A stretch of 64,000 nucleotides of DNA from a virus: the IMG/VR virus record IMGVR_UViG_3300005573_001011, positions 55,081 to 119,080 of that record. One strand, 5' to 3'. Shown in pieces: positions 29-62,986 of this stretch. Position 1 is the first letter of the stretch, and each line of letters opens with the position of its first letter. The notes beneath the pieces are model-generated. The model did not search any database, was not told the DNA's origin, and was given only the letters and a program-made list of their open reading frames with translations. The position numbers and the translations under genes were made by a program.

Positions 29-622
29 GTGAGAATAGTTATGGAAACTCAGTATAATCCTGAGTATCTTGAAAGTGTAAGAAAGTGGAAAACACCACAA
101 GACGTACTTAAATATATCGAAACGTTTTCGTATGCTTCTGAGTTTTTGCCAGATACGAAAAGGAATCTACAACTCTATAAGATCTACCATCCTAAAATGC
201 TTGATTTAGACACTCTATATAAAACAAGACGTGGAACATGTACTAACGTTTATTACTTCTTTGTAAAGACAGTAAATACGATTGACCCTTCCTATGCTGC
301 TTTTGCTATAACTATGACGTGGAGGGGTCCTTGGTCTGGTGTAAATAAGATTTGCTTCTGGTTTGAAGATTTTAAAGTCAAGAGTTTTCGTTGGACACCA
401 CAAGACGGTGGCAAACTCGTTTTAGATGAACCCTTCTCTTCTTTGGAGAGTGCTAGAGATTTCTACATAAGTATGGCAAAAGAGAGCTTAAAACCAAAAG
501 AGATACCTATAAAATACGGTATTTCGATTTTAGACATAAGAGTACTACGAGACCTAAAAATACAGCATGCATTAGAAGTTTTTGGTATAGACGATGGATA
601 TAGTATATACAGAAAGTTCTAA
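29..622 (+). CDS. transglutaminase-like protein, probably degenerate active site; paralogue of 11277-11801
   Basis: LYKTRRGTCTN aligns with VFSLKSGCCLD of the paralogue; shared PFxSL(E/D)S..DFY..M motif; the His and Asp of the triad are not evident. Confidence 0.5.
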   Translation: MRIVMETQYNPEYLESVRKWKTPQDVLKYIETFSYASEFLPDTKRNLQLYKIYHPKMLDLDTLYKTRRGTCTNVYYFFVKTVNTIDPSYAAFAITMTWRGPWSGVNKICFWFEDFKVKSFRWTPQDGGKLVLDEPFSSLESARDFYISMAKESLKPKEIPIKYGISILDIRVLRDLKIQHALEVFGIDDGYSIYRKF

Positions 623-1463
623 GTTTTATGTGGTTACCAATGAAGAAAGAGAAGAGGTAAAAAACTACCTGAAGAACAGTGGCAAGACCGTAGGCAGAGT
701 TGGAATTAGCGGTACTGTTCATGAAGGACATAAGTTTATTATAGAGACAGTTAAAAAATTGTACGATGTCGTTATTGTAGACTATGCTTCTTGGGTTCGT
801 TTAGTTTCTTCTCGCTTGTTTTCCAGTTTCGCACTTCCAAGTGCAGTCACTCCTCCTGATAAGGTAGTGGAGAGCCTTAAAAGGAATAACGTTAGCTTTG
901 ACTACTTTTTTTGTACTAATATAACTGAAAAAATTTCGAGAGAAACTAGTTTCTTTAGAAGTTACGAAAGTGAGTTTCGTAACGTGTTAAAAAAGCTTGG
1001 ATTTACGAGAACTAGCTTAGTAACACTATTGTGGCAAATTATAGTTGAAGAAGTAACCGGAGACACTGAAGAAGTTGGTCAGTCGTTTCTAGGTCCAAAA
1101 AATATTTTGATTGACCTTGTTTCGAAAGCTGTCGTTGGCCAGAATGCTAAGTATTTTCCAAACTATATTTGGAAATCCTATAGAGATCCGTCTACTTTCA
1201 CTCTTGAGTCAAGAACATCTTCATCTATCTTGCTCGGGAAAGTTGCTAGAGAAGCCTATTCCGAACTACTTCGTGGTAAGACTGATGCTAAATATTTTGC
1301 TAACCTTGGGTCTGAGTTTTATAGACAGGAACCAGGGTTTACTATAATAGACTACAAACGTCTGGAAAAAGTAGACCACGTAACAGATAATTGCGTTCTT
1401 GTTTTTTCTGAAGAAAACAAGTTCGACTACATTTTTATTAAAGACGGAATGATAATTTCCTGA
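594..1463 (+). CDS. pantoate-beta-alanine ligase (PanC)-like HIGH-family nucleotidyltransferase, divergent
   Basis: SGKTVGRVGISGTVHEGH resembles PanC GKxIGFVPTMGALHEGH; FLGPKN resembles FGEKD; YRDPSTFTLESRT resembles VRExDGLALSSRN. Confidence 0.65.
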   Translation: MDIVYTESSKFYVVTNEEREEVKNYLKNSGKTVGRVGISGTVHEGHKFIIETVKKLYDVVIVDYASWVRLVSSRLFSSFALPSAVTPPDKVVESLKRNNVSFDYFFCTNITEKISRETSFFRSYESEFRNVLKKLGFTRTSLVTLLWQIIVEEVTGDTEEVGQSFLGPKNILIDLVSKAVVGQNAKYFPNYIWKSYRDPSTFTLESRTSSSILLGKVAREAYSELLRGKTDAKYFANLGSEFYRQEPGFTIIDYKRLEKVDHVTDNCVLVFSEENKFDYIFIKDGMIIS

Positions 1464-1479
1464 GTTATGGAGAAACTTC

Positions 1480-2022
1480 ATGCAAAAAACTGGGTGTACT
1501 TGCGACTCTACATGCTATAATTTTTCCTGCTCTTGTAACACTACTTGCTATGGTTATCAAGCATGTCAGTACGGATGCGATAGTGGTTCGTACGGAGTGT
1601 CCTGTCCTTGTAATACTTCTTGCTATTCTTTTTCGTGTAGCTGTGATGCTAGGTGCCATAATTATGGTTGCACTTGCAATACGCTTTGCCATGGTTACCA
1701 AACATGTATGTACGGGTGCGATAGTTCTTGCTATAATTATGGCAAAGCATGCGAATGTGATACGACGTGTTATGGATATGTCCCATGTTCGTGCGACAAT
1801 ACGCGTTACGGGTATACATGCACATGCGATGGCTGGTGCGACTCGTATACTCCTTGCTCATGCTACGGCCCAGGATATACTGTATGCACTTGCTATACGA
1901 CATGTTATGGCTATTCCCCGTGCTCGTGCAATAATACGTGTTACGGATTTGTATGTACGTGCAATGCAACTTGTTACCAAGAAAGATTTGGTGCAGATGC
2001 TTTATCGTTCGAACTGTTCTAG
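1480..2022 (+). CDS. Cys/Tyr-rich repeat protein, about 14 CxCxxxCY-type units
   Basis: Units CTCDSTCY, CSCNTTCY, CPCNTSCY, CECDTTCY, CSCNNTCY, CTCNATCY etc.; GGAG upstream of ATG; lies directly after the PanC-like gene. Confidence 0.8.
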   Translation: MQKTGCTCDSTCYNFSCSCNTTCYGYQACQYGCDSGSYGVSCPCNTSCYSFSCSCDARCHNYGCTCNTLCHGYQTCMYGCDSSCYNYGKACECDTTCYGYVPCSCDNTRYGYTCTCDGWCDSYTPCSCYGPGYTVCTCYTTCYGYSPCSCNNTCYGFVCTCNATCYQERFGADALSFELF

Positions 2023-2457: not shown

Positions 2458-5400
2458 ATGAGAATCACTTGGACGGCGTTTTTGCACCCTTTTACTGCTA
2501 TGGGTGTAATTGCTGTAAACGTGGTTAGAGAACTTTCTAAGCTTGGTATAGACGTAGGAATAAATGTTTTAAACCCTTCTGAGTACTCTCCAACAGATTA
2601 TCCAACCGAGATCCAAAAAGCGGTAGAAAAAGGCTATAGAGAAGATTCTATTAACATCTTCTTTTCTTACCCAGACATCTATGGCAACGTTAGATGCAGA
2701 GTTAACGTTGGATTTACGGGTGCAGACTCTACAGAATGGTATCAAACAGGAGCTGACAAGCCTCCAGCACAGATCTGTAACGAACTAATGGATTACATGT
2801 TAACTCCATCTGAGTACAGTAAACGAATAATGCAAAACTGTGGTGTAGCTGTTCCAATAATAGTTTTCCCACATGGTGTAGATACTGATATATTTAAACC
2901 AGCAAATAAAACTTCGTCTGGGTTTAGATTTCTTTACATTGGTGAGTTATCTAGAAGAAAAGGAACGTTCGACTTAATTTCATGTTTCGATAAATTTAGC
3001 TTCGTTTATCCAGAAGCTACTCTTGTGCTTAGGGCTAATACTCATATGAAGTATTACGATGGCCAAGAGATAGAACGACAATGCCAGCAAAATAAGCAGA
3101 TTACAGTAGTATACGAGAACAGAGGCCAAGAAGACATTGCTAAATATATGCAGAATTCTGATGTTCTTGTCCATCCAACTAGAGCAGATTGGTTTGGAAT
3201 GCCTCCACTTGAAGCTTTAGCTTGCGGTATTCCAGTTATTGCTACAGCTTCTAACGGATACTACGAATTCCTAAAAGACTTTATAGTTCCAGTTAATTTT
3301 AGTTTACGAGAAGTTGGAAACGAGCACCCTTACTTAAAAGGTAAGTGGAATGTTATAGATAGAGAAGATTTACTTGCGAAAATGGTTTTTGCGTACAATA
3401 ATATAGAAAAGTTGACACAAAAGAGCAGGGAAGTATCTGAACGAATTAGAGAAGAATTTAGTTGGAAGAAAGTAGTAGAGAAGTACTTAGTACCATTTTT
3501 AGAAGAAGTTCACGAAAAGCATTTTAAGCGAGAATTAGTAAAAGTAGCGAAACAAGACAACTACAGAATTACAGTTGGGATCCCGACTAAAGACCGTCTT
3601 CTAGAACTCTCACTTCTCCTCATGTCTCTGCTAAACCAAACTTATAAAGATTTCGAAGTAATTATTGTTAACGACTGGTTCGGAAACATCTATGGCAATA
3701 CTACTCTAAATTCGATTATTAGAATGCTCAACGAAAATGGCAATACTGTTACGATTATCGAAGGTGAGAGAAGGGGCCCCCATATCGCTGGACAGAAGAT
3801 TTTAGATAATGCTAAAACTGAGCTAATCTTAAGACTTGACGACGATGTAGTTCTGCAGCCAAACTTTATAGAAGAGCTAGTTAACGCATACAAGGAACTA
3901 ACAAGTAAAGGAAAGAATGTTGCTGCTATTGGACCGATTTATCTTAATCCACATGAAGAGCTCCGCAAACAAGTCTTGCCTCAAAACATGACAAAGGAAG
4001 AGATGGAAAACTACGGAAAAGTCGTATGGGATGGAAGAAACTTATTTTTAACTGGGTGGATACAGATTAACATGCATCCTCGCAACGAACTAGTTAAAGT
4101 AGAGCACTTAAACTCTGGCTTCATGTATAGAAAGAGTGTTGGCAAACAGATCGGAGGGTTGAGAAAAGACTTGTCAATAGTCGGTCATAGGGAAGAAAGT
4201 GATTTCTCTTGGAGAATGCATAAAGCTGGCTACGAACTGTTCGTTTGCCCAACTGCTATCGCTTATCATTTTCATCCGATGATCGGTGGAATAAGAGAGA
4301 CAATGGGCAAAGCAATTGAGAAAGAGAACTGGGATAGAGACGAAACCCTCTTCTTGCAAACTATAGCAGGTGAACTTGGGGCTAAAGATCAGGTTGCGGT
4401 TGTGGTTCTCACTCATGGATCTGACCACATGAATTTGCGGATGCTCCTTGGAGATATACTTAAATTTACTAGTCACTCTCACGAACTTATTGTTGTCAAC
4501 AATGACTCAACGCCAGAATCTCATAGTGACATAGTACGTATAGAACAAGACGTAAAGTCTAGAATTACGAACTCGAAATTCTTTAATTTGCAGAAAGAAG
4601 TGTCGGTAAGCGAAGCTAGAAATTTCGGTGCAAAACAAAGAAGTGAGAAAAGCAAGTACATTTGCTTTATAGATGACGATGCCAGAATTCTTGGAAGATT
4701 TAGCCAAGAAGAAGATTGGCTAGACTTTTTGTGCAGAAAATTCAACGAACAACCCGATATAGCAGCAGTAGCACCAATTTACACGTGGTTCGACGACTTG
4801 AAATGCGACTGCGTTTCGGTGGCTTGCATGCTTACTTCAGTAAAAGTCTGGGAAGTTGTAGGAGGATTCGATCCAGTCTTCGGGAACTTGAAAAAGGGGA
4901 CATGGGGATATGAAGACGTAGACTGGAGTTATAGGGCACAGATACTTGGTTACAAACTAAAGTCAGTAGAGACGAACGCTTTTCCTTTTTACCATGGTGA
5001 CACCACATTTAAACCTAAGTCTGAGTTAATCCAAGCTGGACTAATTAAAGCTCGAGAACTGTTGCTAGCTAAATGGTCAAAACATGATACTGAGAAATTC
5101 TGCAGGACAACTTATCCTCTTACTCGAGAGCAGTTAGAACTTAGAGGAACGAAACTGAACTTAGGGTGCTACTTTATGCATTTGGATAACTTTATAAATG
5201 TAGACGTAAATCCAGACTGCGGTGCGGATCTTGTCCTCGATATAAGAGACTTAAAGAAGAACTTCCAGCCAAATTCAGTGTCTCTTGTTTTAGCATCTCA
5301 CGTTATAGAGCACTTCACTAAAGAAGAGGCTAAACAAATTCTACGCGACATTTACGACATCTTGCTACCTGGAGGTTTCTTAATTGTAGAAGTTCCAAAC

Positions 5401-5625
5401 TGTAAAAACTTAGATGAACGATTAGCTAAAGGAGAGATTGACAAGTGGACGTATGACATTTTCAAGGACGGATGCCCAAAGGGAGTAGCCCAGAAACATA
5501 AGGCTATGTACGAAGAAGACAGTTTGCGTGAACTTTTACAGAGTTGTGGTTTTACGAACTTAGTTAGAAATCCAATCGTTAGTAATAAAGAATCTGACTG
5601 TTTAAGAATAGATGCAAGAAAATAA
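2458..5625 (+). CDS. multidomain glycosyltransferase: GT4 + GT2 + GT2 + SAM-methyltransferase-like domain
   Basis: PHGVD and FGMPPLEALACGIPVIAT (GT4); VGIPTKDR..RLDDD and FIDDDA..EDVD (two GT2); KLNLGC..SHVIEH..PGG (methyltransferase). Confidence 0.9.
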   Translation: MRITWTAFLHPFTAMGVIAVNVVRELSKLGIDVGINVLNPSEYSPTDYPTEIQKAVEKGYREDSINIFFSYPDIYGNVRCRVNVGFTGADSTEWYQTGADKPPAQICNELMDYMLTPSEYSKRIMQNCGVAVPIIVFPHGVDTDIFKPANKTSSGFRFLYIGELSRRKGTFDLISCFDKFSFVYPEATLVLRANTHMKYYDGQEIERQCQQNKQITVVYENRGQEDIAKYMQNSDVLVHPTRADWFGMPPLEALACGIPVIATASNGYYEFLKDFIVPVNFSLREVGNEHPYLKGKWNVIDREDLLAKMVFAYNNIEKLTQKSREVSERIREEFSWKKVVEKYLVPFLEEVHEKHFKRELVKVAKQDNYRITVGIPTKDRLLELSLLLMSLLNQTYKDFEVIIVNDWFGNIYGNTTLNSIIRMLNENGNTVTIIEGERRGPHIAGQKILDNAKTELILRLDDDVVLQPNFIEELVNAYKELTSKGKNVAAIGPIYLNPHEELRKQVLPQNMTKEEMENYGKVVWDGRNLFLTGWIQINMHPRNELVKVEHLNSGFMYRKSVGKQIGGLRKDLSIVGHREESDFSWRMHKAGYELFVCPTAIAYHFHPMIGGIRETMGKAIEKENWDRDETLFLQTIAGELGAKDQVAVVVLTHGSDHMNLRMLLGDILKFTSHSHELIVVNNDSTPESHSDIVRIEQDVKSRITNSKFFNLQKEVSVSEARNFGAKQRSEKSKYICFIDDDARILGRFSQEEDWLDFLCRKFNEQPDIAAVAPIYTWFDDLKCDCVSVACMLTSVKVWEVVGGFDPVFGNLKKGTWGYEDVDWSYRAQILGYKLKSVETNAFPFYHGDTTFKPKSELIQAGLIKARELLLAKWSKHDTEKFCRTTYPLTREQLELRGTKLNLGCYFMHLDNFINVDVNPDCGADLVLDIRDLKKNFQPNSVSLVLASHVIEHFTKEEAKQILRDIYDILLPGGFLIVEVPNCKNLDERLAKGEIDKWTYDIFKDGCPKGVAQKHKAMYEEDSLRELLQSCGFTNLVRNPIVSNKESDCLRIDARK

Positions 5626-18700: not shown

Positions 18701-21700
18701 TTCCAGGTGCAAAATTAGAAGTTTCTGGTGGAAATATATTAGTAACCGCAACGAGTCCAACTGTTCAGCTTAGCGGTAGTATAACGAGTGGTAGATTTGG
18801 GCAAGATAGTGTCGGTAGTTTTATTGCATCGGACACAAACAGTGCAGCATTACGTTTTCTAACCAATAATGGTTCTCTAAATGAGTGGGTGAGAATAACA
18901 GCAAATGGCAGAGTCGGCATTGGAACGACTGGACCAACTAATACATTACATGTTGCTGGCACTTCAACCTACAATGTAGATAGTGGAATAGCTTTAAGAG
19001 TATCGGATGCAACGACAACAACGAAAGGGATAAATATTGGTTATGACACAAATCTTGATAGGGGCTTCTTACAGGCAGGAAACTTTGGACAATATTACAG
19101 TGACTTATTATTGAATCCAAATGCAGGCAATGTAGGTGTCGGAACGACGGCACCAAATGCTAAATTAGAAGTTGCAGGCACAATTAGAGCGACATCGTTT
19201 GCTAGTCCTCCAAGTGGTAGCGGGTCTAGCCTTGAGTTGGGTTGGAATGGAACATATGGCATAATTCAAGCCTACGATAGAACCGCAGATAGTGTAAAGC
19301 CATTGGTGCTTAATTACAATGGCGGAAATATAATAATGATTCCTACTGGTACTGGTAACGTCGGCATTGGGGCAACGAATCCAGGAGCAAGAGTAGATAT
19401 TGTTCCTTCGTCTTCGAGTGACGTAGTTTTCAGAACCAAATCTTTGCAGTCCACCGCTCCGCTTGGAACTGAACTTGTCTCAAATGGTAACTTTTCCACG
19501 GTTCCTGACACTTCTTGGACATGGGGCAGTGGGTGGACACATGATACGACAAATTTAGAAGCTGACCATACGCCTGGAAATACTGCTGCTTTAACGCAAA
19601 ACATTAATGTGGTTAATGGGCAGACTTATCACGTACAACTAACCATAAAAAATAGAACGGCGGGTTCAGTTACTCTTGACATAAATGGGGTTTATATTTA
19701 CCTCTATAGTTCAATCACTACTTTCGTTACTAACGGTACTTTTAGCCGCTCTCTCGTTGCTAACACGACAGGGTCGGCAACCTTGCGTATTACCCCAAGT
19801 TCCGATTTTAATGGTAGTGTAGATGATATTTCGGTCAAGCAAATTACTGGAGTTTCTCAACCCAATTTTAGTTTAGTGGATGATGCGAGTAGTGTGGTAG
19901 CTGAGTTGAGGGGGAAAAACTCTCTTAGTAATATCGGCTTGGGAACAGATTCTCTTCGCTACAACACGACTGGTTATAGTAATTGTGCGGTAGGTACGAG
20001 TGCTCTTTATAGTAATACTACTGGTTATGAGAATACTGCAGTAGGTACGAGTGCTCTTTATAATAACACTACTGGTTTTTTTAATACTGCGCTAGGTGCA
20101 AAAGCTCTTTATACTAATACTACTGGTATAGGGAACTTAGCATTAGGCAGAGAGGCTCTTTTTAGTAACACTACTGGTTATTATAATACTGCAGTAGGTA
20201 TGAGTGCTCTTTATAATAACACTACTGGTTATTATAATACTGCAGTAGGTATGAGTGCTCTTTATAATAACACTACTGGTTATTATAATACTGCGCTAGG
20301 TATAGGTGCTGGGCAGTACATTGCAGACGGATCATCCCCTAACCAAACTTCATATAATTCTGTCTATTTGGGTTATAATACAAAAGCATCGGCTAATGGG
20401 GATACTAATGAGATAGTAATTGGATATAATGCTACAGGAGCAGGAAGTAATTCTGTTGTTCTTGGAAACGACTCTATTACAAAGACTATATTAAAAGGCA
20501 AAGTCGGCATTGGAACGGCGGACCCCCCAGAGAAATTGACTGTCTATTCGCCATCTTCAACCGATGCTTTTATTCGTGTCTCCTCTCCAGATGGTTGTAA
20601 AGCAGGGATCAAGTTTGGTGAAGACCAGAATTCATCACAAACATGGGGACACAGAATTTTATACGATGGATATAACGATCTTGTTTTATTCCAAAATATT
20701 CGTAATACAGTAGTGAATGAGGTAATGGCTTTCGATAGTAGCAACAGGGTCGGCATTGGGACGACGAGTATGAATGTAAAGCTTGCTGTCAATGGAGCAA
20801 TAGAGTCACTTACAACACCTAGCAGTGACATGAATACAGCCGGACTTATTCTAAAAGACGAAACTACCAGCGGAAGATGGCAGGTACATTCGCATGGAGA
20901 CATACTTAGGATGTACAATGGTTCTATCGAAACCATTGTAGGGGAACAAACTTCAACAATACTTCTTAAGGAAAACATTGTCCCCTTAACTGGTGCCTTA
21001 GATAAAATCAAGCAATTACACGCCATCTCCTTCAAGTTTAAGCCTGAAATTTATGGCGGAAAACAGAGTATCGGTTTTAGTGCCGAAGAGGTGAGGAACA
21101 TTATACCAGAAGTCGTCACCATGGATAAAGATGGCGTCTATCCGATTTCTATTAACTACGGGTTGTTAAGCACAGTTGCAATTCAAGGTATTAAGGAGCT
21201 TTATGGAAAAGTCAGGGGTATTGAGACAACGGGACAAGGGAATCTAGTAATAAACCAAGGCAACGTCGGTATTGGAACGACTACTCCAGGTGGTTCATCC
21301 ACAGTTGGAACGAAAGTATTGTCTATTTCCGCCGGCACAGAACCAAGTGGCGGTGTAGATGGTCAGGTAAGTCTGTTTAGCAAGGATGTTTCTAATTCTG
21401 CAGAACTCTTCGTTATGGACGAAGCAGGAAACAAGACTCAATTAAGCCCACACCCTGGAGACTTCTTAGATAATCTACCAGTTGACGATAGGCCATATCC
21501 TTGGGCATACTTGGCTGAAAATGAGTATCTTGGAAAGAGGATAAAAGTAGATTTAGCGGGTTTGGTGGCCGCCATAGAGAAGTTGACTGGCGAGAAGTTC
21601 ATGTATATTGAAGACATTCCGCGACGGAATTGGGACGAAGATCAAGAAGCTCAAAGACTTGCTCGTGAGAAAGAAATACAAGCTGTCTTGCAACAGATAG

Positions 21701-21861
21701 CCGATCTTGAGCAGAAAATTGAATCTGAAGCAGACGCAGAAAAGAAGCAGGAATTAATCAAGCAGAAAGAGGAGATTGTCGTTCCAGAGCCTTATGTGAA
21801 GAAGAACCTGCCCAAGTGGATAGCTGCAAGACTAAGACAGGAGCAGATGTCTGAAGCCTAA
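12712..21861 (+). CDS. giant tail fibre/adhesin: collagen-like Gly-X-Ser repeats, two CBM5/12-like modules, C1q-like domain, 14 VGIGT modules, NTTG repeats, S74-type chaperone
   Basis: SGYSGI/EGLSG repeats; WDSTTTYYVNDVVYHEGSSYVC twice; GNVGIGTTxP repeats; LKENIVPL..IGFSAEEV..INYGLL..IQGIKEL. Confidence 0.85.
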   Translation: MLIQTFARGLSGYSGYSGIAGTAASSGYSGISGYSGYYGYSGYSGISGYSGIEGAEGLSGYSGFSGYSGVSGYSGIEGLEGLSGYSGVSGYSGISGYSGISGYSGIEGAEGLSGYSGISGYSGISGISGYSGYSGLEGIEGLSGYSGISGYSGISGYSGLEGAEGLSGYSGISGYSGISGYSGLEGVEGLSGYSGISGYSGLFGISGYSGISGYSGIEGTEGYSGYSGVSGYSGISGISGYSGVEGAEGLSGYSGIEGAQGLSGYSGISGYSGIEGAQGLSGYSGISGYSGIEGAQGLSGYSGISGISGYSGISGYSGISGISGYSGAQFVGSSGYSGISGYSGISGYSGISGYSGISGYSGITGISGYSGISGISGISGYSGISGYSGISGYSGIEGTEGLSGYSGISGYSGISGYSGISGYSGLEGAYSASGYSGISGYSGISGYSGLSGYKGLNWTGNWDSTTTYYVNDVVYHEGSSYVCVQENINQEPPNEDYWQLLALAGVPGYTSQQASMYRSGANQPIPNVTWTKVQLNAISFDPYNICNVSNYRIKPTEAGYYLVVGYGSIDLGSGNVFVVAIYKNGSLLVYGTDVALQSGIGYTRSIASQIVYMNGSTDYLELWCYQQSGTTRSLLSGSENTYLSIVSIAGPQGSSGYSGLSGYSGISGYSGIQGLSGYSGISGISGFSGYSGLEGTEGLSGYSGVSGYSGISGYSGISGISGYSGAQFVGSSGYSGISGYSGIEGVEGLSGYSGISGYSGIEGAEGLSGYSGISGYSGISGYSGISGYSGIEGVEGLSGYSGRSGYSGISGYSGIEGVEGLSGYSGISGYSGVSGYSGIEGLSGYSGISGYSGISGYSGVSGYSGIEGTEGLSGYSGISGYSGISGLSGYSGISGYSGISGYSGLEGVEGLSGYSGISGYSGISGYSGIEGVEGLSGYSGISGYSGYSGISGYSGVEGAEGLSGYSGASGYSGISGYSGIEGLSGYSGISGYSGVSGYSGISGISGYSGISGYSGLSGYKGLNWTGYWDSTTTYYVNDVVYHEGSSYVCIQENINQEPPNEDYWQLLALGGTSGYSGISGYSGISGYSGISGYSGIEGAEGLSGYSGVSGYSGVSGYSGISGYSGIEGAQGLSGYSGRSGYSGISGYSGISGYSGIEGVEGLSGYSGISGYSGISGYSGISGTSGYSGISGISGYSGIEGVGGLSGYSGISGYSGISGYSGIEGGQGLSGYSGISGISGYSGISGYSGVSGYSGISGISGYSGRSGYSGVSGYSGTSGISGYSGISGISGYSGAQFVGSSGYSGISGYSGCSGISGISGYSGISGISGYSGRSGYSGISGYSGISGYSGISGISGYSGVLPPGSSGQTLRHDGSNWVANSLIFNDGTNVGIGTTNPGAKLDVDGTIYGQSIRLNRPGDASYIYRDISETGNISIENYCGGINLETGTVGTDRASRIYIQSTGNVGIGTTTATGKFTIKAKDETYTGLLYMEASGSTNAWNMAFDSATAPNLWLQYNGSSTPIMLWRNDGSVGIGTTSPSNLLHVYGTSNIVARFERFTSGIANEGAIEVVGNDASNNKYSLYIGSSPSKGLIRTLQSVPLHFGVNSGINVTIDTSGNVGIGTTGPVANLHIQQTTGTGISLRRTGGEAIFQIVGDGGANYLAMDTATSNLYIGGTPTGAGGQYPTMTVGANNGNVGIGTTSPLGKLHIVYPEVCIPIFENNYGSGLGLNRILMKTYLQGYTYIEMNSNNQGTPFSWKIGLTDSADRFRILRESSEFLSILNTGNVGIGTTEPVGNLDIEATAVNTIGHLVVNRANYGGLGGELTIRNSAGGANAAGAIAFELDGSTAFGSDESNASNAEIRAVNNGILSNSTDLLFSNWSGSAENVNMIIRYNGNVGIGTTDPQAKLHIEGGGSGYVLRIGSSGASGIVNYAAGGGGTSTVSVFGRGGLDFNWGDASVRVYDTGATRLLKLGENAGSGQNVHVIMGINGNVGIGTTIPGAKLEVSGGNILVTATSPTVQLSGSITSGRFGQDSVGSFIASDTNSAALRFLTNNGSLNEWVRITANGRVGIGTTGPTNTLHVAGTSTYNVDSGIALRVSDATTTTKGINIGYDTNLDRGFLQAGNFGQYYSDLLLNPNAGNVGVGTTAPNAKLEVAGTIRATSFASPPSGSGSSLELGWNGTYGIIQAYDRTADSVKPLVLNYNGGNIIMIPTGTGNVGIGATNPGARVDIVPSSSSDVVFRTKSLQSTAPLGTELVSNGNFSTVPDTSWTWGSGWTHDTTNLEADHTPGNTAALTQNINVVNGQTYHVQLTIKNRTAGSVTLDINGVYIYLYSSITTFVTNGTFSRSLVANTTGSATLRITPSSDFNGSVDDISVKQITGVSQPNFSLVDDASSVVAELRGKNSLSNIGLGTDSLRYNTTGYSNCAVGTSALYSNTTGYENTAVGTSALYNNTTGFFNTALGAKALYTNTTGIGNLALGREALFSNTTGYYNTAVGMSALYNNTTGYYNTAVGMSALYNNTTGYYNTALGIGAGQYIADGSSPNQTSYNSVYLGYNTKASANGDTNEIVIGYNATGAGSNSVVLGNDSITKTILKGKVGIGTADPPEKLTVYSPSSTDAFIRVSSPDGCKAGIKFGEDQNSSQTWGHRILYDGYNDLVLFQNIRNTVVNEVMAFDSSNRVGIGTTSMNVKLAVNGAIESLTTPSSDMNTAGLILKDETTSGRWQVHSHGDILRMYNGSIETIVGEQTSTILLKENIVPLTGALDKIKQLHAISFKFKPEIYGGKQSIGFSAEEVRNIIPEVVTMDKDGVYPISINYGLLSTVAIQGIKELYGKVRGIETTGQGNLVINQGNVGIGTTTPGGSSTVGTKVLSISAGTEPSGGVDGQVSLFSKDVSNSAELFVMDEAGNKTQLSPHPGDFLDNLPVDDRPYPWAYLAENEYLGKRIKVDLAGLVAAIEKLTGEKFMYIEDIPRRNWDEDQEAQRLAREKEIQAVLQQIADLEQKIESEADAEKKQELIKQKEEIVVPEPYVKKNLPKWIAARLRQEQMSEA
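12736..16785 (+). repeat. coding low-complexity Gly-X-Y repeat (SGY/SGI/EGL triplets)
   Basis: Gly at every third residue over roughly 1100 aa, with heavily varied synonymous codons. Confidence 0.95.
19950..20300 (+). repeat. 42-bp/14-aa coding tandem repeat ALYxNTTGxxNTA(V/L)G
   Basis: About 8 units; two adjacent units identical at DNA level. Confidence 0.9.
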
Positions 21862-22474: not shown

Positions 22475-22948
22475 ATGGGAATAAAAGTTCTTAGGGAAAT
22501 ATTAGACGAAGAGATAGCTGATTTCGTCAATAAATTAAACGAGTTTTCGTTTCTACAAACAAGGTCATCTTGCTCAGGATACGGAGACCCAGAAACAGAA
22601 AACTCTAGGTCAGATGGAGTTAATAGAGTGTGGCGAGGACGACCATATATTTCGTTTTGGGTGCTCGAACCAGAAGCGTACCAGTTTGTCGAACATGTTA
22701 TGAGAGAACTAGTTTTCGACCACCGCGCTGCAGATGCTCCAGAAAAGCAGCCAGCATATGCAGAAAAACTAAGCAAGTTTGAAATACAAGACGATGGAAA
22801 GCAGCTTATCCACGCTACATTAGAGTGGAGAAACGACAAAATGGTAGTTAGTATCTATATAGATGACAGAGACCGAAACCCAGAAACAATAATGAAGATA
22901 TGGAAACTATTTGAGAGTGCTGTAGACTCTTACAAGACAAAAGGGTGA
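22475..22948 (+). CDS. hypothetical protein with TYW3-like N-terminal motif
   Basis: DEEIADFVNKLN..TRSSCSG resembles TYW3 D..I..L...IN....TTSSCSG; rest not recognisable. Confidence 0.45.
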   Translation: MGIKVLREILDEEIADFVNKLNEFSFLQTRSSCSGYGDPETENSRSDGVNRVWRGRPYISFWVLEPEAYQFVEHVMRELVFDHRAADAPEKQPAYAEKLSKFEIQDDGKQLIHATLEWRNDKMVVSIYIDDRDRNPETIMKIWKLFESAVDSYKTKG

Positions 22949-22992
22949 GAGTGTTAGATTGCTAAGTACAGTTAGAAAAAGGTGCGAGAAAA

Positions 22993-23886
22993 ATGAAATT
23001 TGTTTTTATCTTAACTTTGCTTGTCTTGCTTTTGGCGCCAGGTTACACTGCATCTTATGACAAATTTCACTCTCAGTTTCCAGGAGTTACTGATGAAAGA
23101 GATTTTGTCAATTTCGAAAACTGGATTGTAGAAGTTAAGACAGTCGGTTATGCGTTGGGTATTCTTCCTGAGAAGTTTAGAGGGAAAGAGAAGAGTTGTC
23201 TGAGCATCGGAACGTTTGAGTTACAAGCGAGTGGTTTCGTTGTGCAAGGCGGGTTTATAGTGGCAGCGAACCATGTAGTCTCACCTCACTACGTTCTTAT
23301 AAAGACAGATTACCACGTAGTTTGGAAAGTCCCAGTTACTAGTGTTCTTTCGAAAACTATAATTATTAATGAGTATATACCAGCTACTGTTATTTGGCAA
23401 GACGAAAAAGCGGATATAGCTGTCCTTCTCCCAGTGTACGACCGTAATATGACTCTAGAAGGAGTGTCCTTTAAGATGGAGAGTGCGGCCGTTGAGGAGG
23501 GTGATGCAGTTTCAATAGTAGTTAGAGAAGTGTTCGAAAATGGGGAGCGTGGCTCTTGGCACGAGATCAGACAAGGACGTGTTATATCGCCATATCCTCT
23601 TTCTGTATTTACTCCTGAGTTTGGAGACTTACACCTCTTAACTCAAGCTGAGTTAGAGCCAACGGACATAACTCATTCTACTACTCTCTACCCTGGAGAT
23701 AGTGGCTCGCCATTAATTGCTTACAAAGAAGGCGAACCCGTAATAGTTGGTGTTGTAACTAAAATGATAGCACTTCGTGTAACTCTAACTGATGTTGTAG
23801 TCTTTTACTATGCAACAAGAATAGACAAGGCAAAAAGATTTATTGAAGCATATATAGATTTACAGAGAAGGGAGAAAATAAATTGA
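22993..23886 (+). CDS. trypsin-like serine protease with signal peptide
   Basis: ASGFVV, AANHVV, ADIAVL, PGDSGSPL; hydrophobic N-terminus. Confidence 0.9.
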   Translation: MKFVFILTLLVLLLAPGYTASYDKFHSQFPGVTDERDFVNFENWIVEVKTVGYALGILPEKFRGKEKSCLSIGTFELQASGFVVQGGFIVAANHVVSPHYVLIKTDYHVVWKVPVTSVLSKTIIINEYIPATVIWQDEKADIAVLLPVYDRNMTLEGVSFKMESAAVEEGDAVSIVVREVFENGERGSWHEIRQGRVISPYPLSVFTPEFGDLHLLTQAELEPTDITHSTTLYPGDSGSPLIAYKEGEPVIVGVVTKMIALRVTLTDVVVFYYATRIDKAKRFIEAYIDLQRREKIN

Positions 23887-25337
23887 AGTTAGATTTTCCA
23901 ATTAGGTCCTGTACTATTGACTTAACTGAAAGATGCAACCTACGATGTAAGTACTGCTTTACTTATGGAGTGGGCAAGCGAGATTTAACTTTCGAACAAG
24001 GAAAAAAGACTATCGATTGGTTATTCCGCGATGAAGTAAGTCAAGCCGACGACATTAGTATAGATTGGTGGGGGGGTGAGCCTTTCTTAAAGTTTGACTT
24101 GATGAGACGCTTGAGTGACTATGTTTTAGAGAAAGCACATAAGACTAGGAAAAGAGTAATGATGGGTGGGACATCTAACGTTACTCTGTGGACACCAAAA
24201 GTAATCGATTGGATGAATAACCATAACATCTATTTCCTAATGTCTATAGACGGCGTTGGCGCAGCACAAGATACATTTAGACCGATGGCAGGGAAGAAAA
24301 AGAGCAGTTGGAACGTAATAAAGAGAAGATTGCCGTATATCGTTAGTAAGATTCCGTTTATAAAGTCTAGATCATCCCCTGCACCAGCAACGATACATCT
24401 TTTTGCAGATTCAGTAAAAGAGCTCTATAATACTTACAAGCTAAAAGACCAAACGTTTTCTCCAGTCTTCGAGATGGAGTGGACTGACGATAAACTCAAG
24501 ATAGCGAAAGAGCAGTTATTTGCACTAGCTGATTTCATGATTGAGTTAGCGAAGAAGAGTGAAAGACTAGCAGTTAAGCATTTTGACGATGGAGCAGCAA
24601 AGCTTGAAACGGGATCAATAAAACCAGAATGGCCATGTGGAGCTGGGAGGTTCTACGTTGGTATCGGTGTCGATGGATACATTTATCCATGTCATCGGTT
24701 TAATAAGTATGATCGGCCTGTAAGTGAGAAGTACTGTATTGGTAGTATAGACGAAGGAATTACTAGACCAGACTTAAGAGAACCGTTCTTAAAATTCTTA
24801 GACTTGGCACCTCCAGAGAAGTGCAAAAACTGTAAGTGGTACGGTAGAACGTGCAATATCGGCTGCTATGCTATTAACTTTGACTTAACTGGAAGCATCT
24901 TCACTCCTGGAGAAAATCATTGCAGATGGATGGAAGTGCAAGGTGAAGCTATTGAATACTTTTACAAGAAAATTAAAGAAAATAATCTACCGCTTCCAAA
25001 ACCGGCTTTTCCACAGCCACAAATAGGAGGAATGAGAATGGCAGGGTCATGTATATGCAACAATATGTGTTACTTAGAGGGAACTGAGAGAGAAGTAAAG
25101 ACAGTAGACTGGTCTACAGGATTCGCTTGTCAGTGCTATAACACGAACTACGCTGGTGGTTTAGCAGACCAAGCAAGGCAATTAACTCAAGAAGAGATGC
25201 TAAAGATTTCACCTCGTCCAGCTAGTCAGTATGAGCTATTACAGAAGTTGGTAAACAGACTAGACGAAATGCAAGAGACTAACAAGCAGCTTCTTGATGT
25301 GATTACGAAGCTCGCAAGTTCGTTAGCAGAAAAGTAA
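23883..25337 (+). CDS. radical SAM/SPASM protein with Cys-motif C-terminal extension
   Basis: CNLRCKYC, GGEP, CGAG..GYIYPCHRF, CKNC..C..GC SPASM cysteines; tail contains CICNNMCY and CQCYNTNY. Confidence 0.92.
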   Translation: MKLDFPIRSCTIDLTERCNLRCKYCFTYGVGKRDLTFEQGKKTIDWLFRDEVSQADDISIDWWGGEPFLKFDLMRRLSDYVLEKAHKTRKRVMMGGTSNVTLWTPKVIDWMNNHNIYFLMSIDGVGAAQDTFRPMAGKKKSSWNVIKRRLPYIVSKIPFIKSRSSPAPATIHLFADSVKELYNTYKLKDQTFSPVFEMEWTDDKLKIAKEQLFALADFMIELAKKSERLAVKHFDDGAAKLETGSIKPEWPCGAGRFYVGIGVDGYIYPCHRFNKYDRPVSEKYCIGSIDEGITRPDLREPFLKFLDLAPPEKCKNCKWYGRTCNIGCYAINFDLTGSIFTPGENHCRWMEVQGEAIEYFYKKIKENNLPLPKPAFPQPQIGGMRMAGSCICNNMCYLEGTEREVKTVDWSTGFACQCYNTNYAGGLADQARQLTQEEMLKISPRPASQYELLQKLVNRLDEMQETNKQLLDVITKLASSLAEK

Positions 25338-25362
25338 GACTAAAAAAGAGAGGTAGAAGTAC

Positions 25363-26124
25363 ATGAAAGTGAAATTACTCGTACTAGCAGCTATCTTCTT
25401 AGCTGTTAGTCCTTTCCAAGTAGAAGGACAGGATAAAATCCCAGCACAAAAGCCATGTCCGAAAACTACAATGGTCACCGATTGCTTGAAATGTCATGCT
25501 GTCGGTACATTTAAAGTTATCAGACCCCCGTCTGCTTTTTCTCACGTTGAGTTTCCTGTTGCTATGGAGTTAAGGCAGAGTGAAGACGGGAAAGTATACG
25601 GAATTTACAGACTACGAGACGTTAATGCAGACGAAGTAGATCGGTTCCTCTATTTCCTGAAGAGTGCAGGCATCAAGCATGCTGTAATCGAAATTTTCAG
25701 TCCCGGAGGTAGTCTCTTCGGTGCTCAAAAGATAGTTGCTCACATGGAAGAGTTCCAAAATTCTGGAGGAATTGTAGAAACTAGAATATATGGAGCTGCC
25801 TTGTCAGCTGGTTTCTACATATTTGTAGCAGGAACTAAAGGGTACAGATTTGTCCACCCGGATGCTGAGCTGATGTGGCATGAGCTAATATCTTTAGAAG
25901 GAGTTGGATTTGTCTTTAAAACTCCATCGGACTCCGAAGAGAGATCTAGGATCTTAAGACATCTTCAAGACGTTAGAAATTCGTATTTAGCTGCGAGGTC
26001 GAAAATAACTAAAGAAAAGCTTGACGAAATGGTTAGAAAAAGAGAGTGGTGGATGACGGGAAAAGATGCTATAAAGTATGGCTTTGCCGACGGCTACATT
26101 GGCATTAGCTCTAATAAAAAGTAA
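25363..26124 (+). CDS. ClpP-like serine protease with signal peptide and CxxCH motif
   Basis: FSPGGS, AALSAG (Ser), LMWHE (His), WMTGKDAIKYGFAD; CLKCH at 25483-25497. Confidence 0.85.
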   Translation: MKVKLLVLAAIFLAVSPFQVEGQDKIPAQKPCPKTTMVTDCLKCHAVGTFKVIRPPSAFSHVEFPVAMELRQSEDGKVYGIYRLRDVNADEVDRFLYFLKSAGIKHAVIEIFSPGGSLFGAQKIVAHMEEFQNSGGIVETRIYGAALSAGFYIFVAGTKGYRFVHPDAELMWHELISLEGVGFVFKTPSDSEERSRILRHLQDVRNSYLAARSKITKEKLDEMVRKREWWMTGKDAIKYGFADGYIGISSNKK

Positions 26125-57840: not shown

Positions 57841-59790
57841 ATGGCAAACATTTCACCAGGGGTCTATACTAAAATTACTGACCTCTCGACTTATGTCTCA
57901 GAAGTTCCAGGAACGATAGGATTTATCGCAGCTTTAACGGAAAAGGGAAGAGATAATGAACTAGTTTTTCTGGGGTCGAGAAGCGAGTTAATTTCCGAAT
58001 TTGGTGAGCCAAACATCTCCCTGTACGGGAAAAACTTCGGTCAAGGGCTTTATTGTGCTTACAATTACTTGGGTGAAGCTGGGTCTTTGTACTTCATGCG
58101 AGTTCTCCCAAGTGACGCAACTTACTCGAATTTGCGGTTATTAGCTGATTACGAAGCTTCTGACTCTACAGCTACTATTACTTTCGACTACGTAAGTAGT
58201 CTTAACACGAAAAACGAAATTAAGACAAATTTGGAAGCTTCTGGTACATCAGTAATCGGGATCTTTTACCCGATTGGAAGAGGGGTCTACTACAATGGAT
58301 TAGCGATACGATTAACGAAACATGCGAATCCAGTTCTAAGTGGTATTTATATTCTCGACGTTTATGAGAAGCAAAGTGACGGTAGTGACGTTATTATAGA
58401 GTCGTTCGAAGTTTCGTTCGACCCAAAAGCTACCGACTTGAACGGAGATTCACTCTGGATTTCTTACGTTTTAGAGACGTATTCTGACGTACTAAGATTC
58501 GATATGGTAACTTCAAGCGGTGACTATACTAGCGGCTACGACCTTATTGTGAAGACTTACGACAAAGAAATTGGTACTGTTTCAGTAAACTTAACTAATG
58601 GAAGTGCCTCAATTACAGACAATAAGCAAAACTTCTCAGATTGGTCGTACGTTAGCGGAACAACTTACAACTATTTAGTAATAGCAAAAGATTCCAGAGG
58701 AACAACGATATGGGGTTGGCTTGGAACTGCTAGTGGTCCTGGTTACGAGACTTGTACAATTCACGACGATAGAATAGTTGCTACTTCTTCTCAGAAGTGG
58801 AATGGTGATGTAGCTTCCTTCGATACGAATGGACCCATTACGTATGAAGTTAAAAAGGCTTTTGGAGAAATAGAAAATGCGTTTGTGTCCGCGGAACCAG
58901 CTCCTCTAAAAGAAGGGTCTGACGGAAGCTTAATATCGAGTGGTGGGACTTTAAATACTACTGTTGCAACTGAAATTCTTTCTCAAGCGTATGCTGGAAC
59001 AATAGACGATAAAGTTCTCGATACTGAAAACATCTACTTTAGCATTGTATTCGATTGTGGCTACCCAACTTCTGTGAAACAGTCTGTTTCTACTTTAGCA
59101 CAGACACGAAGAGATTGTGTGGCGATTCTTGACAATGGAGACAACGCAACGTTCGAAGCCTCCATTGCAAAGAGAACAAGTGACCACACTTTCAATACTT
59201 ACTTCTGTGCTCTCTATGAAGAGTACAATAAGATCTACGACACATTTACTGGTCAGGACATCTGGGTTTCACCAGTTTACCATATGTCTTACATATTGCC
59301 GAGAAACGATAGAGTGTCAGAAATATGGTATGCGGCTGCTGGATTTAATAGAGCTGCAATTGACACAATAAAAGAGCTTCGATTTAATCCAAAGCTCGGG
59401 CAAAGAGACCAGATGTACTTAAAGCAGATAAACCCGATAGTTAAGTTTGCCCAGGGATACACTCCATGGGGGCAGCTTACAACCCAGAGCAAACCAAGTG
59501 CAATGCAAGATCTCAATGTAGTTCGGTTAGTACTGTATGTCAAGAGAGCTCTAGAACAGTATTGCAGAAACTACGTTTTCGAAATGAATGATAGCATCAC
59601 TTGGAACGCAGTTAAAGTTGATGTAACTAACTTCTTAGAAGACGTGCGTCAGAAGAGAGGGTTATATAGCTACTCGGTAGAAGTTGGTGCGAGCGACTAC
59701 GAAAAGAAACGCAAGACATTCCATGTTAATGTAATATTAGAACCAACACGAGTGAGCGAGAAGATCGAACTCAACTTCTTCATCAAGTAA
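57841..59790 (+). CDS. contractile tail sheath protein
   Basis: ISPGVY..DLS, FGEP, RRDCVAILD, WYAAAGFNR, RDQMY..QINPI, WGQLT, LNVVRL..FEMND. Confidence 0.95.
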   Translation: MANISPGVYTKITDLSTYVSEVPGTIGFIAALTEKGRDNELVFLGSRSELISEFGEPNISLYGKNFGQGLYCAYNYLGEAGSLYFMRVLPSDATYSNLRLLADYEASDSTATITFDYVSSLNTKNEIKTNLEASGTSVIGIFYPIGRGVYYNGLAIRLTKHANPVLSGIYILDVYEKQSDGSDVIIESFEVSFDPKATDLNGDSLWISYVLETYSDVLRFDMVTSSGDYTSGYDLIVKTYDKEIGTVSVNLTNGSASITDNKQNFSDWSYVSGTTYNYLVIAKDSRGTTIWGWLGTASGPGYETCTIHDDRIVATSSQKWNGDVASFDTNGPITYEVKKAFGEIENAFVSAEPAPLKEGSDGSLISSGGTLNTTVATEILSQAYAGTIDDKVLDTENIYFSIVFDCGYPTSVKQSVSTLAQTRRDCVAILDNGDNATFEASIAKRTSDHTFNTYFCALYEEYNKIYDTFTGQDIWVSPVYHMSYILPRNDRVSEIWYAAAGFNRAAIDTIKELRFNPKLGQRDQMYLKQINPIVKFAQGYTPWGQLTTQSKPSAMQDLNVVRLVLYVKRALEQYCRNYVFEMNDSITWNAVKVDVTNFLEDVRQKRGLYSYSVEVGASDYEKKRKTFHVNVILEPTRVSEKIELNFFIK

Positions 59791-62005: not shown

Positions 62006-62986
62006 TTAGAAGATGGCGAACGGACATTGGTTTGGCTCTTCTTGAAGTAGAGACCTGGTCCTTGCAAAGACTTCACTATTCCAGGCAGATCTTATTGTGC
62101 TATTAGTTAGAGGAATTGCGGTATCGTTTCCTGCAAACGAACAAGGCTTTAACTTCATATCTGGAGTTATGTAAGCTGACATTCTGGCGGCTTCGCACGT
62201 ATCGATACACTGCATCTGCTTCTCACTAAAACATTTTGCCTCCGTCAGTATAGAACATACAAGACATGAATCCAAACCTACAGAAAAAGAACATTTTGCA
62301 TTTACTAGTGCCGCCGCAAATTCTTTTACTTGGTCTTTGCTAAGGCAGTTGCTTTTTAAGCTTACACCTCTTCCAACGGGCTTAAAGAGTAGGAATATTA
62401 CTGCGTTAAGGTTGTCTATGTCCACATTGCTATTCCATACGTCTTCACCATTTAGCAGTCTTATTGCTTTCTGGAGGCTTGCTGAAGACAAAACCATGTG
62501 GATATTTGTCTTGATCTTAGCTTGTTGAAGTATCCGGATTGCACTATATGTAAATTCTTTTCCATAGTCACTAACCGCTACTGCACCCACATACTCTTTA
62601 GAAATACAGGCATGTTTTTCGCTGAAGTCTCTGCCAGAGGTAGTGTAGTTTGGGATAACACCTTTTTCTCGAGTGTACTTAAGGATTTCTTCGAAATCAG
62701 CATGTTGGTCTGGGTCACCCCTACCACCTAAAGCCACTTGAGTTACGTAGGGTGAAGATTCGTCAATGATTTTTTTATACTTTTCTAAAGACATATTTTC
62801 TTGTCTTTCTTCACCCTGGTAGCAGAACGAGCAGTTTCCTTTACACTCTCCCATGATTCCTATATCCAGAAGAGAAGGGAATTCGAGAGAGAAGGGGTCG
62901 TCGTAACCGTTAATTCCGGTTCTAATCTCTAGACCACTTCTCTCATCGAAGATAATTGCATAGCTTTTCGTTCGTATTATCTTCAT
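62006..62986 (-). CDS. radical SAM protein with short twitch/SPASM-like C-terminus
   Basis: CKGNCSFC, QVALGGRGDP, PNYTTSG, CEAARMSAYI..PCSF..CP. Confidence 0.9.
   Translation of the reverse strand: MKIIRTKSYAIIFDERSGLEIRTGINGYDDPFSLEFPSLLDIGIMGECKGNCSFCYQGEERQENMSLEKYKKIIDESSPYVTQVALGGRGDPDQHADFEEILKYTREKGVIPNYTTSGRDFSEKHACISKEYVGAVAVSDYGKEFTYSAIRILQQAKIKTNIHMVLSSASLQKAIRLLNGEDVWNSNVDIDNLNAVIFLLFKPVGRGVSLKSNCLSKDQVKEFAAALVNAKCSFSVGLDSCLVCSILTEAKCFSEKQMQCIDTCEAARMSAYITPDMKLKPCSFAGNDTAIPLTNSTIRSAWNSEVFARTRSLLQEEPNQCPFAIF

Follow-up and report, generated by a model that had tools for sequence, protein, structure and literature searches.

Radical S-adenosylmethionine (SAM) enzymes that form thioethers are known almost only from small peptides that bear a leader. 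In CteB, the layout of the SPASM domain leaves one iron of an auxiliary cluster free for a substrate Cys. The same free-iron layout is stated for CrpC of Methanococcus voltae, a SPASM radical SAM enzyme that installs ranthionine cross-links on the large Cys-repeat protein CrpA; as presented in that report, modification of whole proteins by such enzymes has only just been shown, in this one archaeal system (PMC13692751). PapB, described with its partner PapA (freyrasin), works on repeated CX3D motifs, where it joins a Cys thiol to the beta-carbon of Asp, and it also accepts CXnD spacings (PMC9413430). Borosins of the OphMA type carry a substrate-like sequence at the C terminus of the modifying enzyme (PMC7878506). 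Here we analyze a stretch of virus DNA (the window), the last 64 kb of the 119,080-bp IMG/VR virus record IMGVR_UViG_3300005573_001011 (CheckV completeness, 38%), which encodes a 484-aa radical SAM/SPASM enzyme with a Cys-rich C-terminal tail and, 22 kb away, a 180-aa Cys-repeat protein, referred to as the polymer. We judge it probable on balance, though far from secure, that the enzyme is one polypeptide, a phage-specific CteB/PapB-like radical SAM/SPASM enzyme that cross-links the repeats of leaderless fiber-type proteins and has the Cys module of its tail as an integral part. In the literature searched, no published account of a phage radical SAM enzyme acting on fiber repeats was found; a cyanophage gene list includes a "radical SAM maturase," and the list gives nothing more (PMC12801897).

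A radical SAM/SPASM enzyme without an N-terminal recognition element

The enzyme gene, the parts of its tail, and the polymer gene are located in the window as follows.

23883..25337, + strand: gene of the radical SAM/SPASM enzyme (484 aa), which begins with TTG; this start and the stop of the gene upstream overlap as TTGA
23934..23957, + strand: CX3CX2C radical SAM cluster motif (C18/C22/C25), kept in 96% of 115 homologues
24636..24923, + strand: SPASM domain with seven Cys (C252, C270, C314, C317, C324, C328, C347); the Pfam SPASM match spans residues 252-318
24987..25046, + strand: variable Pro/Gly linker, residues 369-388, holding an AGGAGG and in-frame ATGs
25025-25030, + strand: AGGAGG, in the linker
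25032 (M384) and 25038 (M386), + strand: in-frame ATGs, the second after a 7-nt spacer and opening a 99-aa frame that ends at 25337
25047..25181, + strand: conserved 45-residue Cys module, residues 389-433, with two units
25050-25073, + strand: unit 1, CICNNMCY, residues 390-397
25128-25151, + strand: unit 2, CQCYNTNY, residues 416-423
25227..25334, + strand: C-terminal amphipathic helix, residues 449-483, from the AlphaFold2 model; variable in sequence and missing in some homologues
1480..2022, + strand: Cys-repeat protein (polymer), 180 aa, probable substrate; 9 strict and 11 relaxed CxCxxxCY-type units

The enzyme scores above the cut-offs of Pfam Radical_SAM (PF04055; 34.1 bits versus 29.5) and of both SPASM models (PF13186, 22.4 bits versus 21.5; TIGR04085, 42.5 versus 27), placing it in these families. 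Its N terminus aligns with the homologue start MKKLDFPI, and the seven SPASM Cys are conserved in 98 to 100% of 115 sequences. An AlphaFold2 model built on a 115-row alignment has a mean pLDDT (predicted score of the local distance difference test) of 90, with a confident core, and among solved folds the top match is CteB (5WHY; E value, 3.8e-22; template modeling score, 0.63-0.71), with anSME next. The top NCBIfam matches are all maturases of Cys-containing peptides, namely PapB (208 bits), nif11-like (151), CXXX-repeat (142), QhpD (141), and SCIFF (135). The closest of these is the PapB family (NF047865), where the enzyme reaches 208.4 bits against a cut-off of 340; the corresponding values are 135 against 425 for the SCIFF maturases (TIGR03974) and 44.3 against 525 for the CrpC family (TIGR04463), so that the enzyme falls outside all three.

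Only 17 residues precede CX3CX2C in the enzyme, and the SCIFF, QhpD, and nif11 models align with it only from model positions 75 to 96. As these models bear the recognition element (RRE) of systems for RiPPs (peptides made by ribosomes and modified after translation), the short start and the late alignment indicate that the enzyme has no N-terminal RRE; Pfam likewise detects no PqqD-like (RRE) domain in it. It thus differs from the canonical RiPP radical SAM maturase, in which an N-terminal RRE binds the leader.

Compared with the described systems, the enzyme would work like PapB, CteB, and CrpC, yet it stands outside the cut-offs of all three families and apart from their RRE/leader logic. 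PapB/PapA is the best family match, extending over model positions 2-329 of 330, and the polymer units offer Cys together with Asp/Asn at short spacings; PapA, however, is a short peptide that bears a leader, whereas the substrates proposed here are leaderless proteins of 150 to 1068 aa, some with phage tail domains, and the repeat-like module at the enzyme's C terminus lies outside the 330-position PapB model. With CteB/CteA (PDB 5WHY, 5WGG), the top structural match, the enzyme has the seven-Cys SPASM layout in common, but CteB has a leader-binding N-terminal RRE, while the SCIFF model matches the phage enzyme only from position 96. The likeness to CrpC/CrpA lies in the pairing of a SPASM enzyme with a large Cys-repeat protein rather than a peptide, a pairing known here from the genes; an RRE is present in CrpC, and the first 47 residues of CrpA are leader-like and its repeats are 17 residues long, in a system that is cellular and archaeal, not viral.

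Cys-repeat proteins accompany the enzyme family

Within the 119,080 bp of the record, nine copies of the strict unit CxCxxxC[YH] lie in the polymer, whose units include CSCNNTCY and CTCYTTCY, one lies in the enzyme tail, and there are none elsewhere; because the strict unit is confined to these two genes, the motif that they have in common is not a chance occurrence. A protein search with the enzyme returned 235 matches, comprising a close clade at 41 to 57% identity and a remainder at 31 to 39%. We collected 160 loci around the relatives, 50 with an enzyme of this family and 110 with more distant radical SAM genes. Open reading frames (ORFs) with at least three CxCxxxC[YHF] units are present at 24 of the 50 family loci versus 2 of the 110 others, and at all 26 loci the repeat ORF is on the enzyme's strand. 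A simple pattern located a complete enzyme ORF at 34 non-redundant loci, of which 18 carry a repeat ORF within the available flanks; at six of these (L083, L084, L085, L093, L102, and L105) it lies 6 to 34 nt from the enzyme gene. BLAST relatives of the window polymer were found in 24 family loci. Unbiased clustering of the same-strand ORFs at 44 non-redundant loci returned the polymer family as the commonest neighbor (31/44), the next cluster being present at 10/44. Five further records were searched over their whole length, and in two of them weak repeat matches lie immediately upstream of the enzyme.

The closest long relative of the window is L087, a 115,681-bp contig whose enzyme is 56% identical. 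Its genes run in the order ClpP-like protease, small ORF, transglutaminase-like (TGase-like) protein, PanC-like ligase, enzyme, 157-aa protein, and two polymers of 1068 and 342 aa; genes that stand 22 kb apart in the window therefore form a single cluster in this relative. The original prediction had tied the enzyme to the distant Cys polymer, and this link is strongly supported by the distribution of repeat genes and by the L087 cluster.

Drawn from 352 windows, the repeat unit is C-[ST]-C-[ND]-x-T-C-Y-G-Y, and it recurs every 11 to 12 residues. The proteins that bear the repeats are 150 to 1068 aa long, with the repeats N-terminal, central, or C-terminal, and are not free peptides. A phage tail Collar domain was identified in the L083 repeat protein (E value, 1.5e-15) and a Phage-tail_3 domain in that of L105 (E value, 1.9e-12), and in L002 the enzyme genes, here four tandem paralogues, and a repeat protein lie downstream of SU10-type major capsid protein and adaptor genes. 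Repeats of 12 residues with Cys form a beta-solenoid in some insect antifreeze proteins, a fold that the polymer might also adopt; the fold of the 180-aa polymer cannot be read from its AlphaFold2 model (11-row alignment; mean pLDDT, 36.5).

The Cys module of the tail is conserved like a functional domain

Both tail units are present in 95 of the 115 aligned homologues, one unit in 16, none in 3, and three in 1; the one-unit count is by search pattern, and several of those 16 carry variant units. C390, C392, N394, C416, C418, and Y423 are each conserved in at least 90% of the 115 sequences and C396 in 83%, and the module contains invariant residues other than Cys. Mean column conservation in the module (0.52) equals that in the catalytic core (0.52) and approaches that in the SPASM domain (0.57), as opposed to 0.06 in the linker, 0.12 in the segment after the module, and 0.12 in the helix. 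Module and helix vary independently, some homologues ending just past the module and others having only the helix. In the model, pLDDT is below 50 in the linker (residues 378-389), about 80 at 391-410, about 85 at 431-440, and 81 to 94 in helix 449-483. The tail had been predicted to end in a coiled coil; a helix is indeed modeled there, and a coiled coil formed by it is possible. A complex prediction of the core (residues 1-384) with the tail (residues 385-484) gave a score of 0.01 and a mark of 0.32, which is not evidence either way.

The resemblance of the tail units to polymer units, which the original prediction had noted by eye, holds in profile comparison. Tail and polymer units have C0, C2, (C6), and Y7 in common, and hhalign pairs tail unit 1 with the last polymer unit and what follows it over 20 columns (probability, 66%; E value, 5.6e-5). 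The CYxE form of tail unit 1 is seen in 7 of 24 terminal polymer units (counted from a listing), while E occupies that position in 7% of all CxC windows. A tail-specific signature, applied to 163 loci, was found 28 times within enzyme ORFs and twice within the L087 polymers. The units also differ systematically: position 1 is hydrophobic in the tail and S/T in the polymer, and position 4 is an invariant N in tail unit 1, unlike in polymer units.

We had started from the proposal that the tail is a precursor-like peptide fused to its maturase. A RiPP precursor has a variable core and is separately encoded or released, and the tail departs from this on conservation and on gene structure, as its signature never formed a small separate ORF in the 163 loci. 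Nor did a word-based search, of low sensitivity, find stand-alone tail homologues of 54 to 174 aa. Conservation equal to that of the catalytic core, invariant non-Cys residues, and systematic differences from the polymer units argue that the module is a functional domain. Its pattern is that of a domain under constraint, which either arose from the substrate repeat or converged on it, and not that of a variable core peptide. Searches for relatives of the module in Pfam and the PDB gave nothing under an E value of 0.02, and an ESM Atlas search with the tail and with the polymer gave no usable match.

The same conservation bears on a different explanation, namely that the tail Cys (C390, C392, C396, C416, and C418) bind metal, whether as structural zinc or as an additional Fe-S cluster that transfers electrons; in that case the polymer repeats would be metal-binding knuckles as well, or their likeness to the tail would be superficial. 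Five Cys at fixed spacing, with conserved acidic and aromatic residues, in a module as conserved as the catalytic core would suit such a site, the positions at which tail and polymer differ argue against a true substrate copy, and metal binding is proposed for Cys-rich proteins beside radical SAM enzymes in the discussion of CrpA (PMC13692751). We nevertheless regard metal binding as unlikely. All seven SPASM Cys are retained in members missing one or both units, so that the module is not an obligatory site for a cluster; the model gives unit 2 a pLDDT below 50, which is unusual for a compact metal knuckle; and the module matches no known metal-binding family or solved structure. The spacing CxC...CxC is not known as a standard one for Fe-S clusters or zinc ribbons, which also counts against this explanation. 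Among tail-less members, a search for extra core Cys as substitute ligands revealed no clear pattern, and C285 is present in 43% of the whole family.

The position of a substrate-like motif at the C terminus, behind a flexible linker, also recalls the borosins, in which a precursor is fused to its own modifying enzyme (PMC7878506). By analogy, the enzyme might cross-link the units at its own C terminus, acting in cis or between the members of an oligomer that the helix mediates, with the modified tail serving as a stapled domain or being freed by a protease. N394 and Y397 are invariant beside the Cys, and the upstream protease gene is translationally coupled, both of which would fit. This self-modification is nonetheless very improbable in our judgment: the module is far more conserved than usual core peptides, the abundant adjacent repeat proteins are more obvious substrates, and the flanking proteases appear exported and, apart from the ClpP-like gene in L087, are not conserved neighbors. 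Borosins are moreover of the N-methyltransferase class, with the core as product, whereas in the phage enzyme the tail is conserved as a domain, and the likely substrates are repeat proteins encoded apart from it.

A possible internal start in the close clade

The sequence confirms an AGGAGG at 25025-25030, 7 nt before the in-frame ATG at 25038, and the 99-aa frame to 25337, from which a separate product had been predicted. Conservation of this start is confined to part of the family. In the close clade, a Met stands 3 to 6 residues ahead of the first tail Cys in 11 of 13 proteins. Of the 99 proteins outside it, 19 have a Met within 8 residues, roughly as many as chance would give. Eight close-clade genes were read at the DNA level. 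In four of them (WIN, the window enzyme gene; L082; L087; and L088) an AGGAGG lies 7 to 10 nt ahead of the internal ATG, L084 and L085 have GGAGG at 13 nt, and L083 and L086 have the ATG without a Shine-Dalgarno (SD) sequence. Outside the close clade there is no SD/ATG, yet the module is kept. Contigs from the reads of four DNA runs are near-identical to the window and leave 25025-25040 unchanged, their divergence of about 1% being uninformative on the internal start, and a sequencing-run look-up listed no RNA dataset for the record.

Gly-Gly codons (GGA GGN) spell out the SD, and 153 of the 304 Gly codons (50%) in these genes are GGA; the SD alone is therefore no more than a Gly-Gly linker would lead one to expect. 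The internal ATG is the only in-frame one with an SD of at least 5 nt in each of the four genes (1 of 14 in WIN, 1 of 17 in L082, 1 of 18 in L087, and 1 of 29 in L088). On the + strand of the window there are 10 AGGAGG sites with an ATG at 4 to 10 nt, 7 of which mark the starts of ORFs of at least 50 aa, and the site at 25025-25030 is the only one of the 10 deep within a long frame.

When 1.84 billion representatives were searched with a module profile, 27 matches came back, all of them enzyme-type proteins or short ORFs. Most of the short ORFs are truncated calls, opening with the Met inside NMCY. P0121 (109 aa; present on 3 contigs of up to 4742 bp) and P0131 (104 aa) start exactly at the internal Met, and P0121 has no near-identical full-length partner, the best being P0002 at 65% identity; a viral scan with P0121 gave no match. 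P0121 may be a natural split form.

From these sequence features, separate translation is plausible in the close clade and not family-wide. A nested gene, with additional initiation at ATG 25038 in this clade and a free 99-aa product made of module and helix, would be compatible with the cross-linking proposal, as the short protein could work with the full-length enzyme, for instance via the helix common to both, as a repeat adaptor or chaperone. We consider it possible but somewhat unlikely. The spacing and uniqueness of the SD/ATG, the position of most such sites in the window at the starts of ORFs, a Met kept in an otherwise unconserved linker, and the start points of P0121 and P0131 all favor it; these two proteins may, however, be artefacts, as other short matches are plainly truncated calls, about half of such Gly-Gly dipeptides would give GGAGG anyway, four of the eight genes have either no SD or a distant GGAGG, and elsewhere in the family the module persists with Met at chance level and no SD/ATG.

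Proposed cross-linking of fiber repeats

From domain architecture, conservation pattern, and gene association, we infer the chemistry, the substrates, and the role of the module. Under the proposal that we favor, of a phage-specific enzyme acting on leaderless fiber-type proteins, the enzyme would install Cys-derived cross-links, most likely thioethers, in the 11- to 12-residue CxC(N/D)xTCY repeats, its substrate in the window being the 180-aa polymer at 1480-2022. It would bind SAM and three clusters; a repeat Cys would come to the auxiliary cluster as in CteB, and the 5'-deoxyadenosyl radical would take a hydrogen from a neighboring residue, producing the thioether. Unit conservation points to three positions as candidate acceptors, namely 3 (N/D), 5 (T), and 7 (Y), and the reaction would be repeated along arrays of 3 to 47 units. 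Tandem enzyme paralogues, seen in L002, L091, and L092, would be in keeping with several different cross-links in each unit.

Since neither a leader nor an RRE is present, it must be through the repeats themselves that the substrate is recognized, a task for which the conserved repeat-like module on its flexible linker is the obvious candidate. In place of an RRE, the enzyme carries a C-terminal extension, found across the family, that is made of the linker, a module that we read as two degenerate copies of the substrate repeat, with unit 1 resembling a terminal "CYxE" repeat, and the variable amphipathic helix. The module may engage the repeat array by pairing with or mimicking a repeat, or may fill the active site between substrates, and would not be released. 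The helix may oligomerize the enzyme or tether a short isoform, and in the closest clade the SD/ATG ahead of the module may additionally yield such a 99-aa isoform.

A bolder version holds that the module is a built-in, non-reactive copy of the substrate repeat which, both fused to the enzyme and, in the closest clade, also as a separate 99-aa protein, pairs with or caps the growing fiber array. We regard this version as doubtful. If it were true, substrate mimicry would stand in for the leader/RRE logic and enable the enzyme to act along arrays of up to 46 repeats; recognition of this sort would be a new principle among radical SAM maturases, and phage fibers would undergo a new kind of enzymatic hardening.

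Several observations weigh against the cross-linking proposal. The scores of the enzyme in the NCBIfam maturase families each lie far under the curated cut-off, so that the chemistry of those families is not assured and "thioether" is an extrapolation. At 16 of the 34 non-redundant loci there is no repeat gene in the flanks, which are short at 11 of them. In the module, the unit 2 region (residues 418-427) is modeled at a pLDDT below 50, and the five conserved tail Cys could equally well be metal ligands. Position 3 is Y in 63 to 68% of tail units versus N/D in 84% of polymer units, and position 5 is M/L in tail unit 1 and T in polymers; the positions at which tail and polymer differ are most likely the acceptor positions. 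Finally, members with unit 2 alone or without a Cys unit still adjoin repeat genes (L006, L007, L105, and L014), and the module is therefore not indispensable for the association.

Distribution, paralogues, and inteins

Most family matches are metagenomic, several on contigs of 100 to 300 kb, and the family of more than 200 enzymes appears to be virus-borne. Scanning one genome per species for 185,579 prokaryote species with the tail motif returned a single locus, L164, a 9,770-bp contig binned with a Thermoplasmata metagenome-assembled genome (MAG); the contig has viral-looking gene content and begins with a variant Cys-repeat ORF. For family member P0135, the annotation names a Methanogenium MAG as the source. 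Archaea may be among the hosts, or the binning may be wrong. The enzyme-repeat pairing is found in at least two phage types, the contractile-tailed large phage of the window and, elsewhere, phages with SU10-like structural modules.

Family members of 726 to 1096 aa have intein/HINT Pfam matches or a LAGLIDADG annotation (P0005, P0009, P0118, P0127, P0132, and P0135), and long members of this kind are encoded at L086:8921-11284 and L088:7077-9611, from which it follows that the enzyme gene is a recurrent target of inteins or homing endonucleases. Tandem paralogues of the enzyme lie at L002:7533-13817 (four), L091:190-3953 (two), and L092:1382-6531 (two); they differ in their tails, having both units, no Cys unit, or no helix.

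At 10 of 44 family loci, the gene directly downstream of the enzyme encodes a ~265-aa protein without a Pfam match, which is missing from the window. It is a further candidate partner in its clade and is found at the following loci.

L002:11246-12049; L006:11191-12015; L007:11113-11880; L009:11238-12065; L015:11245-12036; L093:8285-9085: ~265-aa protein

Neighboring genes and phage setting

The other features of the window that bear on the system are these.

29..1463, + strand: TGase-like gene and PanC-like ligase gene, directly upstream of the polymer; the Pfam Pantoate_ligase match is weak
2458..5625, + strand: multi-domain glycosyltransferase/methyltransferase (GT4, GT2, methyltransferase), 1055 aa, directly after the polymer
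12712-21861: collagen-like tail fiber, 3049 aa
22475..22948, + strand: 157-aa protein with only faint TYW3-like similarity
22993..23886, + strand: trypsin-like protease (Trypsin_2; E value, 1.1e-8) with a signal-peptide-like N terminus; its stop overlaps the enzyme start
25363..26124, + strand: ClpP-like protease (E value, 4.5e-17) with a signal-peptide-like N terminus and a CxxCH motif
57841-59790: tail sheath

The tail sheath and the collagen-like tail fiber indicate that the source is a large contractile-tailed phage. An unrelated second radical SAM gene lies near the window end at 62006-62986 on the - strand (phrog_7293; E value, 6e-34).

Homologues of the TGase-like and PanC-like genes adjoin the enzyme or the polymer in L087, L088, and L085. 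The 157-aa protein is 67.5% identical to the product of L087:11441-11911 and has homologues in L088 and L085 also, its gene standing between enzyme and polymer there. L088 and L085 have portions of the gene order seen in L087. The conserved module, which comprises the TGase-like protein, the PanC-like ligase, the enzyme, the 157-aa protein, and one or two Cys-repeat proteins, is contiguous at L087:7445-16734, L088:11045-15586, and L085:912-6106, while in the window it is split into two blocks 20 kb apart (29-2022 and 22475-26124), with a second TGase-like/PanC-like pair between them, ahead of a giant SGYSG fiber.

That two proteases flank the enzyme, as first read from the sequence, is upheld by their domain matches. 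The trypsin-like protease has no homologue in the family loci, and the ClpP-like protease has one that is 74.7% identical, 1.7 kb upstream of the enzyme in L087 and only there. Both look exported, with signal peptides judged by eye. A role for them as leader peptidases was considered and rejected as unsupported, because both look exported and the trypsin-like gene is without a homologue in the family loci.

Homologues of the 1055-aa glycosyltransferase/methyltransferase (51 to 52% identity) are encoded directly after polymer genes at L091:6639-10302, L092:9521-12889, and L098:5318-8953. The polymer units are mostly N-x-T and so resemble sequons, and the repeats may therefore also be glycosylated.

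Implications

If these enzymes cross-link repeats, phages would use RiPP-type chemistry to build or stabilize virion fibers. As the enzymes have no leader or RRE logic but do have a repeat-like module, substrate recognition is directly testable in them, and the family could supply leader-independent cross-linking enzymes for protein engineering.

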